Of a DNA stretch of 64,000 nucleotides, positions 1 to 10,137 are shown piece after piece; positions within the stretch are counted from its first letter, which is position 1, and the number at the start of each line of letters is the position of its first letter. Below the pieces are notes generated by a model. The model made no database searches. It was not told the DNA's origin and was given only the letters and a program-made list of their open reading frames with translations. The position numbers and the translations under genes were made by a program. The DNA lies in NCBI GenBank assembly GCA_041650515.1, contig JBAZLA010000002.1:39572-103571 (forward strand), in the 5' to 3' direction. Source of the DNA: Patescibacteria group bacterium. GTDB taxonomy: Bacteria; Patescibacteriota; Patescibacteriia; JACRDY01.

Positions 1-2047
1 TTGCGCCTTGAAGATCACGTGCGGCACCGGTAAATTGGCTCAAAATTAAAACCCCAGACTCATCGCTCCTGGCAGCCACAAATTCTTTGGCCACCAAGTT
101 CATGCCATCACTTAATGAGGTTACTAAACAAATCTGGGCAGCACGATACAGCGGATAAATTTCTTCATGAGTATGATGCTCTTTTAAAAAAACTATTGGC
201 TGCCAACCATTTTTTTCGAATTTCTGATTTATTCTTTCTGCCTCTTGTGTAACTTCTTCATTAAATTGGCGATATTTTTCCACGCCCTCACGACTAGGTG
301 GCGCAATTTGCAAAAATGTGAATCGTTCTTTATAGGCTGGATAGATATTAAAAAAGAATTCTAAACCTTTAAACCTCTCCAGAATTCCCTTAGTGTAATC
401 TAATCGATCTACGCCGACACCCAAAATTTTAGATTTTAGTTTTAAATCTTCTAACAATTCAGATTTTGGTGCGGTCTTTGTGCTTTCACCATTAGTAAAT
501 GCAACGCTGATGGGGAAAGGTTTAATATAGGCGGTATGGCCTTCGTGAGTGATGGCAAATTTTTCCAGATCAACTAGAGATTCGATCTCTTTACTGACAG
601 TTTCCATAAAATTATTAGAATACTGCTGGGTGTGAAAGCCTAAAACATCGGCCCCGAGCATACCTTTCAAAATCTCCTTTCGCCAAGGACAAATACTAAA
701 CACCTCCGCATTCGGCCATGGAATGTGCCAAAATAGCTCGATCTCGGCATCCGGTCGGCTATCTTTAATCATTTTTGGCAATAAAGCAAAGTGGTAATCT
801 TGGACAAGGATAATCGGTCTAGGTACATCTTTAATTTCTGCCAATAACGCCTGGGCAAATTTATTATTAACCTTCTGATATGTCAGCCAATCATTCTTAC
901 GGAATATGGGCCGAGTATGGGCTATATGACACAGGGGCCATAATGCTTCATTGGAAAATCCCACATAATACTCTTTTATTTCTTTTTCAGTTAACCACAG
1001 ACGTTTTAAAGTGTATTTTGGTTCATCCGGCGGGACTTGAATTTTGTTTTCAGCATCTACCGTCAATTTATCAGCATTACCACTACCATGAGCCAACCAC
1101 AAACCGCCGCAGGCTCCCATAACCGGCTCTAGAGCAGTGACCATGCCGCTCGCTGGCACATCATAACTTATTTCATTTTTAATTTTTTTGTGGATATAGG
1201 GCTCACGATTGGAAACCACAAATATTCGACGATCTTTGAGATAAGCTTTAAAAAACTCCTTCAGTCGTTCCGCCGTCCAGGGCGAATCCAGTTTTTCTAA
1301 ACGCATTCTAGCTTCTTCGCTGGCTGCTGTTCTCGCCGAAATTAGACTCCTGGCTATTTTTGTGATTTCGGTTGCGACTGGCTTAAAAAAACCATAATTT
1401 TTCTGTGCACCAAAATCTTCGTCAATCTTACCACTACGCGCTTGGCGAATTGTTTTAACCATGGTTATTATCGGCTGATAAATAATCCAACGTAAAATCA
1501 ACGCTACAGCAATAGCAAATAATAGTGCCTGGACTAAAAGACGTAATAAATTAGTTTTCCAAATCTGACTAATTGCATCATCAATATAACCAGCCCTTTG
1601 GAATACCGTTAATACTCCTATCACTTTTTCGTCTTGATGCAACGGAGTAGCAAAGACATATACTTTATCGCCACCAGAGGTAGAAAAGTCACCTTCAGCG
1701 CTGTCTAGATCCATCGCCTTTTCTGGTATAGTGACATTCTGAACCAAATCTGGCGGCAGACCGGTCGATGAGGCGAATAAATCGCCCTTATTATCATAAA
1801 CAACTAAACCTAACAAACGCTCTCGCCCCACAAATTTATCAAGCAAATCTTGTAAAGTGGCAGTAGTATTACTCAAATATGAAGGTTTAATAGATTCTTT
1901 AAGGCTGTCAGCTAAAAGTGTAGTCCGACGCTGCAAGTCATCCACTAATGATGTCTGCTGCTGACGGACTTGCCAGAAAGTAAAACCTAGCACTACTAGA
2001 CTAACGATTATTACCACAGCTATGATGGAGGCAAAAAACTGTCTCAT
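1..2047 (-). CDS. Membrane-anchored sensor domain fused to a GT20 trehalose-6-phosphate synthase (OtsA-like). It is partial: the C-terminus runs off the window start.
   Basis: Hand translation of the minus strand from the ATG at 2045-2047 gives TM1, a ~150-aa extracytoplasmic segment, TM2, then a GT20 core with VVSNREPY, GACGGLW, WHIPWP, GVDRLDYTKGI and SDGMNLVAKEFVAA motifs. The frame was checked at three points. It is missing from the ORF track because it is truncated at the window edge. Confidence 0.75.
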   Translation of the reverse strand, partial: MRQFFASIIAVVIIVSLVVLGFTFWQVRQQQTSLVDDLQRRTTLLADSLKESIKPSYLSNTTATLQDLLDKFVGRERLLGLVVYDNKGDLFASSTGLPPDLVQNVTIPEKAMDLDSAEGDFSTSGGDKVYVFATPLHQDEKVIGVLTVFQRAGYIDDAISQIWKTNLLRLLVQALLFAIAVALILRWIIYQPIITMVKTIRQARSGKIDEDFGAQKNYGFFKPVATEITKIARSLISARTAASEEARMRLEKLDSPWTAERLKEFFKAYLKDRRIFVVSNREPYIHKKIKNEISYDVPASGMVTALEPVMGACGGLWLAHGSGNADKLTVDAENKIQVPPDEPKYTLKRLWLTEKEIKEYYVGFSNEALWPLCHIAHTRPIFRKNDWLTYQKVNNKFAQALLAEIKDVPRPIILVQDYHFALLPKMIKDSRPDAEIELFWHIPWPNAEVFSICPWRKEILKGMLGADVLGFHTQQYSNNFMETVSKEIESLVDLEKFAITHEGHTAYIKPFPISVAFTNGESTKTAPKSELLEDLKLKSKILGVGVDRLDYTKGILERFKGLEFFFNIYPAYKERFTFLQIAPPSREGVEKYRQFNEEVTQEAERINQKFEKNGWQPIVFLKEHHTHEEIYPLYRAAQICLVTSLSDGMNLVAKEFVAARSDESGVLILSQFTGAARDLQGA

Positions 2048-2155
2048 GAATTTTAACTTAAAACAATTAAAATAAATACTGCCCAAAGATAACCATATAT
2101 AATTGCATTATACCAAAAAACCGCCTTTTCGGCGATTTTTAAGCTCATCTAGCTC

Positions 2156-3784
2156 TCAAGATAAGGGTTGTATATTCTCTAAACTATTATTAATCACCTT
2201 AATCAAATCCTTTGGCTCGGTATTGCCTTTAAACACATAAGCCGCGGCACCCAACTTTTTGGCTTTTTCGCGGTCTTGATCAGTATTAAGATTGGTAAAA
2301 ATAATCACAGGAATTTTTGATATCGCCGGATCTTTTTTAGCTGCCTCCAAAAAACTCCAACCTTGTTCGGCAACGGTATAAACCGAACCATCTTCCCTCT
2401 TCTGGGGTAAAATGATATCTAACAAAACCACATCGACGGAGACTTCTCTCAACTTAGCCAAAGCGGTTTTAACATCTGACACTGAATAAAAATTAAAACC
2501 GTGGCTTCTCAAATAGGAGTCATACATTTCAACTAACAACTGCTGATCTTCAATCAGAAGAATACTGGGACGCTGTTTAGCCTTAGCTACGGTGTTCTTA
2601 CTGTTTCTTACTCCTACCTTAAACTGGGCGGCTAAAACCTTTTCTTTAGTTTCCGCTTGACCAGTAGAAATCGGCAAAATAAAGCTAAAAGTCGTACCCT
2701 TACCAATTTCAGTTTTTTCTAACTCTAATTTTCCACCGCAGCCACCCACAACTTTTTGAGCAATATATAGACCCAAGCCCGATCCATCGGGATGTAAATT
2801 ATTGGCGCTATCGCCACGGGAAAACTTGCGAAACATTCTTTTTTGATCATCGAGCGATATACCGGCACCAGTATCTGTAACAAAAACTTTCAGATACTCA
2901 CTAGTATTTTGTTTAACTTTGCCGAGTGAAACAGTCACACTACCAGCCGGTGTATAAAAAATAGCATTATCTAATAGATTAGAAATTACGTGAACAATCT
3001 TTTTGGGATCACAAAAAACTTTAGGCACCTCAAAAGATGGCTTCTGATAAACCAATTTGATTTTCCTTTCTTGAGTAATCTTTAACAATCGCTTAGTATC
3101 AACTTGATCATTAATAATCCGTTCGATATCGACAACGGCGAAGTTAGCTTGCATCTCTTGACCTTCCAGCTCAAAAGCATCCCAAAAATCTTGAATTGTA
3201 TTACTCATCGCTTCTAAACCCGAACCCAAATATATCAATGCCTGTTTTGGCGGCAAAGTCTTTTCCTGCAACATCGAATAGGCGCTGCGCATCACTGATA
3301 GCGGCGTATTGAGCTGATGATTAACTACCCGCAAAAAATCTGACTTCATGCCTAGCAACTCTTCAAGATGCTTGTTTTTATCACTAATTCTGCTGGTCTG
3401 TTCGGCCACTTTACTTTCTAGATTATCAGTCAATTCTTTTAGAGCATCGGTTGCTCTTTTTAAGGAAAAATTGGCTTTGATAATTCTCTCAGTACTACGG
3501 TTAAAAAAATAACCGTAGACAATGACCAGAATAAAAACTGTGATCACTACCAACCAGGAGAGTCTTTTCTCAATCAAAATAAAGAGTATAAAAGCCAACG
3601 CTATTAAGAATAAACTAATGACTTGATATTGGAGGAAGAGACAACGGCGAAATTTAAATTCGCAGTACTGACAACGCCGGTATGGAGCATAGCCCAAATT
3701 TTTTACCAGCCAACAATCATTGTTGCGATAATCATCACCACCAATTTTTTTACCACCGTTTTGATTTTTATCAGCCTCCACCAT
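2156..3784 (-). CDS. Hybrid sensor histidine kinase with a C-terminal receiver (REC) domain
   Basis: 542 aa with an N-terminal Cys4 stretch (CWLVKN..RRCQYCEFKFRRC), two TM helices, a coiled coil, a HisKA-like phospho-acceptor His region (VVNHQLNTPL) and an HATPase_c domain (TDTGAGI, GLGLYIAQ). The REC domain carries LLIEDQ and VLLDIILP. Confidence 0.85.
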   Translation of the reverse strand: MVEADKNQNGGKKIGGDDYRNNDCWLVKNLGYAPYRRCQYCEFKFRRCLFLQYQVISLFLIALAFILFILIEKRLSWLVVITVFILVIVYGYFFNRSTERIIKANFSLKRATDALKELTDNLESKVAEQTSRISDKNKHLEELLGMKSDFLRVVNHQLNTPLSVMRSAYSMLQEKTLPPKQALIYLGSGLEAMSNTIQDFWDAFELEGQEMQANFAVVDIERIINDQVDTKRLLKITQERKIKLVYQKPSFEVPKVFCDPKKIVHVISNLLDNAIFYTPAGSVTVSLGKVKQNTSEYLKVFVTDTGAGISLDDQKRMFRKFSRGDSANNLHPDGSGLGLYIAQKVVGGCGGKLELEKTEIGKGTTFSFILPISTGQAETKEKVLAAQFKVGVRNSKNTVAKAKQRPSILLIEDQQLLVEMYDSYLRSHGFNFYSVSDVKTALAKLREVSVDVVLLDIILPQKREDGSVYTVAEQGWSFLEAAKKDPAISKIPVIIFTNLNTDQDREKAKKLGAAAYVFKGNTEPKDLIKVINNSLENIQPLS

Positions 3785-9614: not shown

Positions 9615-10137
9615 AGTATATAGGTCTTAGTATGCAGTATGCGGGAAAATTAAACAATTTTTAATAAAAGATTTAGATGATTTTAATGCCTAGTTTTTTA
9701 TTATTCTAATATTAATTAATAAATACAACTTTATGTCGGAAAAAATCAAATCCTTCACCGATCTTATAGCCTGGCAAAGGGCCCGCGAGCTAGTCTTGAC
9801 AATTTATAAAGCGACTGAAAATTTTCCTAAAAAAGAAATCTACGGATTGACAGACCAAATGCGCCGAGCTGCCGTCTCGGTTACTTCTAATATCGCCGAA
9901 GGCTTTAGCCGAAAATCCAAAGCCGACAAGGCCCATTTCTACACTATAGCTAAAAGTTCACTAGTTGAGCTACAGAACCAACTGATTATTGCCAAAGATA
10001 TTAACTATCTAGAAAATAACTATTATCAAGCAACCTACATTATAACTATTAATTGCAGCAAACTATTAGTTGGTTTAATCCGCGCCGCTGAAGCAAAACA
10101 GTCTTCCCCGCATACTACATACTAAGACCTGCATACT
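9615..10137 (+). mobile_element. IVS-like cassette: a 31-bp imperfect inverted-repeat pair (9615..9645 and 10107..10137) flanking a four-helix-bundle protein gene, inserted between tRNA-Glu and murF
   Basis: AGTATATAGGTCTTAGTATGCAGTATGCGGG on the left, and on the right the reverse complement of cccgcatactacatactaagacctgcatact. The two match at 28 of 31 positions. Confidence 0.45.
9733..10125 (+). CDS. Four-helix-bundle protein (23S rRNA intervening-sequence protein family; same fold family as DGR Avd)
   Basis: 130 aa. FTDLIAWQRARELVL, DQMRRAAVSVTSNIAEG and AKSSLVELQNQL match the family (PF05635/TIGR02436) closely. Confidence 0.85.
   Translation: MSEKIKSFTDLIAWQRARELVLTIYKATENFPKKEIYGLTDQMRRAAVSVTSNIAEGFSRKSKADKAHFYTIAKSSLVELQNQLIIAKDINYLENNYYQATYIITINCSKLLVGLIRAAEAKQSSPHTTY

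Follow-up and report, generated by a model that had tools for sequence, protein, structure and literature searches.

The window considered here, a stretch of 64,000 nucleotides from a Patescibacteria group bacterium (contig JBAZLA010000002.1, positions 39,572 to 103,571 of the forward strand), carries at its left edge a minus-strand gene in which a glycosyltransferase domain of family GT20, the family of the trehalose-6-phosphate synthases OtsA and Tps1, is preceded by a membrane-spanning module of the type found in bacterial sensor proteins. This architecture, a sensor module plus GT20, is near certain. Taken as a whole, the protein is read here, with rather better than even confidence, as a membrane-integrated, sensor-coupled trehalose-6-phosphate synthase. 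From an N-terminus that would lie in the cytoplasm, the polypeptide is predicted to run through a first transmembrane (TM) helix, an extracytoplasmic Cache/PDC domain of the WalK type, a second TM helix, a cytoplasmic HAMP-like hairpin and a helical linker into the GT20 domain.

The open reading frame (ORF) of the sensor-GT20 gene starts with an ATG at position 2047 and stays open for 682 codons down to position 2 (2..2047, minus strand; amino acids (aa) 1-682 of 739), and the C-terminal 57 aa fall past the left edge of the window. None of the three plus-strand frames of positions 1-2100 is open. The original prediction, made from the letters of the window, had ascribed the absence of this frame from the ORF track merely to truncation, and this is indeed the case, as ORFs that cross an edge are unlisted. 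The full-length gene was retrieved from the contig and encodes the complete architecture in 739 aa. In the homologue search the same protein was recovered (P0001, recorded as 'MAG: trehalose-6-phosphate synthase [Patescibacteria group bacterium]'), 100% identical to the window protein over its whole length. It is present on contigs of separate origin, namely from ENA and Logan (NCBI and JGI are also listed as sources), the longest of which measures 243,507 bp; since the identical protein was recovered from independent contig sources, the fusion is not an accident of assembly. A frameshift or stop codon between the TM region and the GT20 core, the weak point foreseen in the original prediction, was looked for and the reading frame was found to be uninterrupted. 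A chance origin is excluded by the E-values of the domains and by a frame that stays open for 2 kb at the window's G+C content of 41%.

The catalytic half of the protein is a GT20 domain of the OtsA/Tps1 type, which occupies aa 273-682 in the window (positions 2..1231, minus strand) and continues to about aa 735, as judged by Pfam, NCBIfam and PDB alignment. The Pfam model Glyco_transf_20 matches aa 274-680 (E 4e-102, 342.8 bits, gathering cut-off 32.5), and on the full-length protein the match extends to aa 736. The domain is about 40% identical to Tps1 of Candida albicans (5huv, E 2e-84), with which the motifs SNR-P, DYH, HIP-P, DRLDY-KG, PSR and DGMNLV-KE are aligned. All four motifs from which the GT20 core had originally been recognized are in place, namely SNREPY (aa 279-284), GGLW (aa 314-317), GVDRLDYTKGI (aa 545-555) and DGMNLVAKE (aa 647-655). 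Across the family, conservation is complete or reaches at least 90% at R281, G301, Y361, D417, H441, R548, K553, R586, D647 and E655; W370, which was mapped by hand as a further catalytic or substrate-binding counterpart, is absent from the list of positions with at least 90% conservation. The counterparts in Escherichia coli OtsA are presumably R9, G22, Y76, W85, D130, H154, R262, K267, R300, D361 and E369. Among the NCBIfam families OtsA scores best, with 446.6 bits versus 302.8 bits for GgpS (glucosylglycerol-phosphate synthase), a separation of about 140 bits. We regard trehalose-6-phosphate synthase activity, as predicted from sequence, as quite likely.

The N-terminal 272 aa contain two hydrophobic segments. 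Kyte-Doolittle windows above 1.6 are confined to two regions, about aa 1-29 and about aa 165-197, as expected of two TM segments with a loop of about 140 aa between them. TM1 (aa 4-24, positions 1976..2038, minus strand) is part of a helix spanning aa 2-58 in the AlphaFold2 (AF2) model, and TM2 (aa 167-189, positions 1481..1549, minus strand) is part of a helix spanning aa 153-205. Of 118 close homologues 115 show the same two-segment pattern, as do 35 of 37 homologues from across the phyla; those that deviate are three gene calls that lack the first segment, one locus with an internal deletion and one with an additional, weakly hydrophobic stretch. TM2 is followed by several basic residues (R186, K197, R200, R203 and K206). 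Because of the two hydrophobic segments, this basic stretch and the presumed need of a GT20 enzyme for a cytoplasmic nucleotide sugar, the loop is predicted to lie outside the cytoplasm between the two TM helices. The arrangement put forward in the original prediction, TM1 followed by an extracytoplasmic domain of about 150 aa, TM2 and a linker, is thereby upheld, with the two predicted TM helices flanking a Cache/PDC loop.

The loop (aa 28-165, positions 1553..1966, minus strand) is assigned as a single Cache/PDC domain of the WalK type by AF2, Foldseek and profile comparison. The full-length AF2 model (pLDDT 86) consists of the helix at aa 2-58, a beta-sheet domain at aa 78-151, helices at aa 153-205, 222-252 and 259-270, and the GT-B fold; modelled alone, the ectodomain reaches a pLDDT of 92.7 and a pTM of 0.87. 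In the AF2 and Foldseek analyses it has the fold of Cache/PDC domains, in which a long helix at the N-terminus leads into an antiparallel sheet of five strands flanked by helices. The best Foldseek match in the PDB is the extracellular Cache domain of WalK from Staphylococcus aureus (4ywz, E 4.6e-8, TM-score 0.81), and the fold is also matched by the WalK structures 5is1 and 7dud; further matches include KinD, CitA, DctB and Tlp3, and 31 sensor-domain matches were obtained at E of 0.001 or less. Consistent results came from sequence models: a profile built from the 37 cross-phylum N-termini matches the WalK ectodomain in the PDB (E 6.5e-5), and the NCBIfam WalK model covers aa 6-210 (E 1.3e-8), followed by weaker matches to the input regions of YfiN/DgcN (E 0.0015), CreC and ChvG. 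The Pfam Cache models behave differently. The search for a Cache/PDC domain suggested with the original prediction thus had a divided outcome, the fold and profile matches to the WalK ectodomain being clear and the Pfam matches, which include sCache_3_2 and Cache_WalK, remaining sub-threshold. When matches were gathered at E up to 1, sCache_3_2 was found in 16 of the 37 relatives (best E 1.3e-5).

Conservation within the ectodomain is sparse, and only G80 and I155 are invariant across phyla. The first periplasmic helix displays a conserved stripe, composed of L34, D37/L38, R41/T42, L45, S48, E51/S52 and P55, which would fit a dimer interface. One family member, P0130 (913 aa), bears two tandem copies of the Cache ectodomain ahead of TM2, the HAMP-like module and GT20.

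The segment directly after TM2 (aa 190-240, positions 1328..1480, minus strand) resembles a HAMP module in its layout of two helices joined by a connector, as assessed by alignments, Pfam matches in relatives, a PDB profile and hhalign. It has the expected length of about 50 aa immediately after the last TM helix, and the family consensus in this region reads RW-I--PI---A-W-R-LR-G, then the connector, then PLA-EV--LA-SL--AR. The HAMP hallmarks comprise a conserved Pro192 in helix 1, Arg204 and Gly206 at the end of helix 1, the connector and an invariant Glu227 that opens helix 2; of these, P192, G206 and E227 are conserved or invariant in the family. In the AF2 model the helices around the connector stop at aa 205 and resume at aa 222. 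Pfam HAMP matches were obtained for 7 of 37 relatives (best E 0.0047), and a segment of Tsr comprising TM2 plus HAMP aligns in register with the N-terminal profile (E 0.2). The segment can be described as HAMP-like, the model-based support, to which the Af1503 matches given further below also belong, being weak but consistent.

Between this module and the enzyme lies a family-specific helical linker (aa 241-272, positions 1232..1327, minus strand; AASEEARMRLEKLDSPWTAERLKEFFKAYLKD), recognized by its conservation and by the AF2 helices at aa 222-252 and 259-270. It begins with AASEEARMRLEKLDSPWTAERL and is not reached by any canonical OtsA model, the matches to these models beginning at aa 274 in every case. 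The linker holds most of the invariant residues of the entire N-terminal 272 aa, i.e., A242, E245, A246, R249, W257, T258, R261 and L262; the remaining four, P223, E227, L235 and A238, are located in the preceding HAMP-like helix (aa 223-240).

The architecture is widespread. Identity to the window protein is 58-78% in all 120 of the best homologues, with coverage of 81-100%; most are about 740 aa in length with coverage of 96-100%, two are shorter fragments, and more than 115 share the architecture of the window protein. Where a source is named, it is a Patescibacteria lineage, such as Doudnabacteria, Magasanikiibacteriota (Magasanikbacteria), Uhrbacteria, Gottesmanbacteria, Staskawiczbacteria or Buchananbacteria. 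When a single genome per species was scanned, 587 related stretches were obtained. The architecture is shared by the best 80 of them, and in nearly all of these 80 the match begins no later than residue 25 and extends to about residue 738 (in two the start is later, and in one a contig end truncates the match). The 80 loci span about eight phyla: Acidobacteriota, Elusimicrobia, Thermodesulfobacteriota/Syntrophus, Planctomycetes, Omnitrophica, Bacteroidota, Eremiobacterota-like metagenome-assembled genomes (MAGs) and Patescibacteria. Dense families of sensor-GT20 proteins occur in Terriglobales and Chitinophagaceae, the latter including a cultured species, Longitalea arenae, whose isolate genome codes for a protein (P0500) that is 44% identical over the whole length and has otsB divergently upstream. 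Genes for an Mn-catalase, DUF421 and DUF4142 are found close by in the L. arenae locus (L089:2896-5730), and one may guess at a stress-related neighbourhood. In the databases the proteins are labelled just 'trehalose-6-phosphate synthase', and the sensor half goes unmentioned. In the literature we found no description of a membrane-fused or sensor-fused OtsA, a result that leaves absence unproven, given the poor full-text coverage of subscription journals.

When the N-terminal 273 aa alone were used as the query, 733 clusters (at 50% identity) were matched at E up to 0.001 and 304 at E up to 1e-10. These are mostly fragmentary proteins, of little use for identifying other output domains, except for P0166 (L088:3373-5445). 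In that protein a TM1-Cache-TM2-HAMP-like module, 35% identical to aa 11-208 of the window protein (E 8e-31), is joined to a carboxylate-amine ligase of the GCS2 type (Pfam GCS2, E 2.7e-9) instead of GT20. By its sequence, P0166 is predicted to be a second sensor-plus-metabolic-enzyme design on the same input module. Two other candidates for new outputs, P0170 and P0178, which showed no Pfam match, were rejected as frameshifted GT20 fusions.

The gene neighbourhood of the relatives was surveyed in 84 loci with 5-kb flanks. The otsB gene (Trehalose_PPase) lies within the flanks in 43 of the 84 loci and is the next gene on the same strand in 35. DUF5752 and a TreT-like GT4 are each found in 34 loci, and an MscS channel or an MscS-DUF5752 fusion in seven, with MscS fused to DUF5752 in L008, L009, L011 and L045. 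In all six Patescibacteria/candidate phyla radiation (CPR) relatives examined, otsB is located directly downstream, at a distance that ranges from a few bases to about 70; four of the six proteins are 72-77% identical to the window protein, and in two of the six a TreT gene lies divergently upstream. The original assignment to trehalose synthesis is supported by this linkage, and the otsB, DUF5752, TreT-like and MscS neighbours of the relatives together support both the trehalose assignment and a function in osmotic stress. Outside Patescibacteria a recurring cluster accompanies the sensor-GT20 gene, composed of otsB, DUF5752, the TreT-like GT4 and sometimes MscS (L008-L081, e.g., L020:7332-10092, L009:7404-9955 and L013:7241-8311). 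No mention of DUF5752 was found in the searchable literature. In one Doudnabacteria MAG (L003:8223-9011) the otsB beside the sensor-GT20 gene is split into ORFs of 88 and 163 aa, possibly by a frameshift or sequencing error.

Compared with these relatives, the gene context in the window is atypical. Beyond the left edge, where the original prediction had suggested looking for otsB, there is instead a generic, co-oriented GT4 gene, 20 bp past the stop codon of the sensor-GT20 gene, followed by a gene for an HI0933-like flavoprotein (L001:12241-14661). The GT4 has weak best matches to models of the GlgA, BshA and MshA type; its identification as TreT was considered and rejected, as a TreT_GT1 domain is lacking and the match to the TreT model amounts to just 24 bits. 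No homologue of either the GT4 or the flavoprotein was found in the other loci searched, and the gene order occurs only in this contig. No MscS ORF was found in the window plus 12 kb (about 76 kb).

On the other side, a gene for a hybrid histidine kinase of 542 aa (2156..3784, minus strand) with HisKA, HATPase_c and Response_reg domains, as identified by Pfam and NCBIfam, lies upstream of the sensor-GT20 gene on the same strand, with a gap of 108 bp. Its hydrophobic stretch at aa 47-97 is read as two adjacent TM helices, with no ectodomain; ahead of this stretch, at aa 38-48, is a Cys-rich motif, CQYCEFKFRRC. The interval between the two genes contains possible expression signals (2107..2135, minus strand), read by eye and weak: a terminator-like hairpin, TCGCC-GAAAA-GGCGG (2121-2135), then a run of six T (2115-2120), which is overlapped by an extended -10 element, TGGTATAAT (2107-2115). 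Neither the hairpin nor the extended -10 was reported on the minus strand by a consensus promoter and terminator scan, and the evidence for them is accordingly weak. The sensor-GT20 gene appears to have its own promoter-like element in this genome. A hydrophobic 31-aa ORF (MSLKIAEKAVFWYNAIIYGYLWAVFILIVLS; 2053-2148, minus strand) is present here in the public annotation; it is probably spurious, since it overlaps both the hairpin and the extended -10.

The proposed mode of action follows the order of the modules. By analogy with WalK-type kinases, YfiN/DgcN and HAMP-containing adenylyl cyclases, the protein would most likely be dimeric. The ectodomain or the membrane helices would register a change and relay it, by way of the HAMP-like module and the linker, to the GT20 domain, whose activity would rise or fall. 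The synthesis of trehalose-6-phosphate, and hence of trehalose, would then be under post-translational control by a cue from the envelope or from osmotic conditions. Such direct regulation of the enzyme by its sensor is plausible by the same analogy; that the sensor module does regulate catalysis, a conclusion drawn from domain logic, we hold to be about evenly balanced. Because of the MscS and trehalose gene context, our best guess for the signal is a cue from the envelope, the membrane or osmotic conditions. A signalling role, as opposed to mere anchoring of the enzyme, is favoured by three observations: homology with the input modules of kinases and cyclases extends over all of TM1-Cache-TM2, most of the N-terminal invariant residues are in the HAMP-like helix and linker, and the same module is found on a different enzyme, the GCS2-type ligase of P0166. 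In its broadest form the proposal describes a large cross-phylum family of receptor-enzymes in which a Cache sensor and HAMP-like transducer would gate a GT-B glycosyltransferase, switching trehalose synthesis without a kinase, second messenger or transcription, and in which DUF5752, MscS and the TreT-like protein would be the other components of a module for osmoadaptation that has yet to be described. To this extended form we would give a little short of an even chance.

A number of results weigh against the sensor-coupled synthase. For the input half, the Pfam Cache models fall below their gathering scores (dCache_1, 19.4 bits versus a cut-off of 45), and few polar ectodomain residues are kept across phyla, such that a shared or universal small-molecule ligand is not evident. 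For the transducer, the window protein itself has no Pfam HAMP match at E up to 1; the HAMP domain of Af1503 is the top PDB match of the linker-only profile and aligns end to end, but with an E of only 0.6, and in the pairwise hhalign comparison with Af1503 (E 8e-5, 50 columns) the probability is low, at 61%. Confidence in the AF2 monomer is also low in the HAMP and linker region (pLDDT 56-73), and the model is uninformative on coupling. For the enzyme, the full-length protein scores below the equivalog cut-off of the NCBIfam OtsA model TIGR02400 (446.6 versus 564.85 bits) and below that of PRK14501 (495.4 versus 634 bits). As for gene context, no OtsB-like ORF was found in the window plus 12 kb with a hidden Markov model built from 38 neighbour OtsB proteins at E up to 10, nor was any TreT-like or DUF5752 ORF found in the same 76 kb.

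Several of these results can be accommodated by other explanations. The N-terminal module could be a membrane anchor or scaffold only, tethering a constitutive OtsA near exporters, glycolipid synthesis, MscS or DUF5752. The poor cross-phylum conservation of candidate pocket residues in the ectodomain would suit such a role, as would the weak HAMP evidence and the membrane-protein partners (MscS) encoded nearby in some relatives. Yet a simple anchor could do without a folded ectodomain of 140 aa, without a second TM helix and without a HAMP-like hairpin, and about eight phyla have kept all three; moreover, most of the invariant N-terminal residues are concentrated in the helix that joins TM2 to the enzyme; the homology of TM1-Cache-TM2 with the inputs of sensor kinases and a diguanylate cyclase, and its reuse on another enzyme, point the same way. 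We consider a purely anchoring role unlikely, while according it real weight. It is a good deal less probable that the GT20 product here is something other than trehalose-6-phosphate, or that the enzyme serves another pathway with the downstream GT4, e.g., the synthesis of a different sugar-phosphate osmolyte or glycoconjugate precursor. The score under the OtsA equivalog cut-off and the missing OtsB-like ORF are compatible with another product, as is a downstream GT4 that is generic and part of a gene order confined to this contig. Against it, proteins 72-77% identical are encoded directly upstream of otsB, the OtsA models score about 140 bits over GgpS, all OtsA catalytic motifs are kept, and with only about 76 kb covered otsB could be elsewhere in the genome.

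The original prediction had also laid emphasis on the neighbouring hybrid kinase, and its control of the enzyme, as in a functional two-component gene pair, would be in keeping with the common strand and the 108-bp spacing. The emphasis was misplaced. The GT20 protein has no receiver domain, a kinase adjoins the sensor-GT20 gene in none of the 84 related loci (in L073 one unrelated kinase is found 2.3 kb downstream on the other strand), and the terminator-like hairpin and extended -10 lie between the genes. The kinase is an incidental neighbour, and a functional pairing is very improbable. The chance that the fusion is an artefact, in which a membrane-protein gene was joined to otsA by a frameshift, a chimera in the assembly or faulty gene calling, is practically negligible. 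Such errors do exist in metagenome data, as demonstrated by the frameshifts inside GT20 in P0170 and P0178, but nothing indicates one in this protein, which has an uninterrupted frame and an identical copy on contigs of independent source, and hundreds of homologues, including that of the L. arenae isolate genome, have the same length and architecture.

The sensor-coupled synthase would thus be a new combination of known parts, with a catalytic half related to OtsA/Tps1, an input half like that of WalK, and a design logic similar to that of YfiN/DgcN and the HAMP adenylyl cyclases. Like E. coli OtsA (1gz5) and C. albicans Tps1 (5huv), the window protein has a full GT-B domain in which the substrate-binding and catalytic motifs are kept, and its relatives are linked to otsB. 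The characterized OtsA and Tps1 enzymes are known as soluble proteins, whereas the window protein carries the 272-aa module of TM1, Cache, TM2, HAMP-like segment and linker, and scores below the NCBIfam OtsA equivalog cut-off. With WalK (YycG) it shares the order and spacing of TM1, one Cache/PDC ectodomain, TM2 and a HAMP or HAMP-like segment; unlike WalK, its output is a metabolic glycosyltransferase, with no cytoplasmic PAS, DHp or kinase catalytic domain and no phosphorelay. YfiN/DgcN and the HAMP class III adenylyl cyclases (e.g., Rv3645) likewise lead from a TM sensor through HAMP and a signalling helix into an enzyme on one polypeptide. Their outputs, in contrast, make second messengers and need dimerization of the catalytic domains, whereas the window protein would make the precursor of a bulk metabolite, at a GT-B active site contained within one subunit. 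The coupling mechanism of the cyclases is not simply transferable. Precedents for the tuning of GT20 activity are the N-terminal extension that regulates class I TPS1 of plants and the allosteric control of mycobacterial OtsA; these regulators are soluble and unrelated in sequence, and none of them is known to be a transmembrane sensor.

Fast control of trehalose synthesis in bacteria has mostly been described as transcriptional control or as ion activation of soluble OtsA. A receptor-fused OtsA would link sensing straight to synthesis. If this is true, a metabolic glycosyltransferase would join the short list of outputs of Cache/HAMP receptors, the first such output as far as we could find, and the protein would be an enzymatic counterpart of the osmosensing transporters ProP, BetP and OpuA. 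The family is abundant in soil Acidobacteriota, in Bacteroidota and in the ultra-small Patescibacteria, where tolerance of desiccation and osmotic stress matters, and the existence of a cultured carrier, L. arenae, makes the idea testable.

Elsewhere in the window, a 130-aa ORF at 9733-10125 (plus strand) has Pfam matches to 23S_rRNA_IVP and bAvd and, judging from these, may be an accessory gene of a diversity-generating retroelement.

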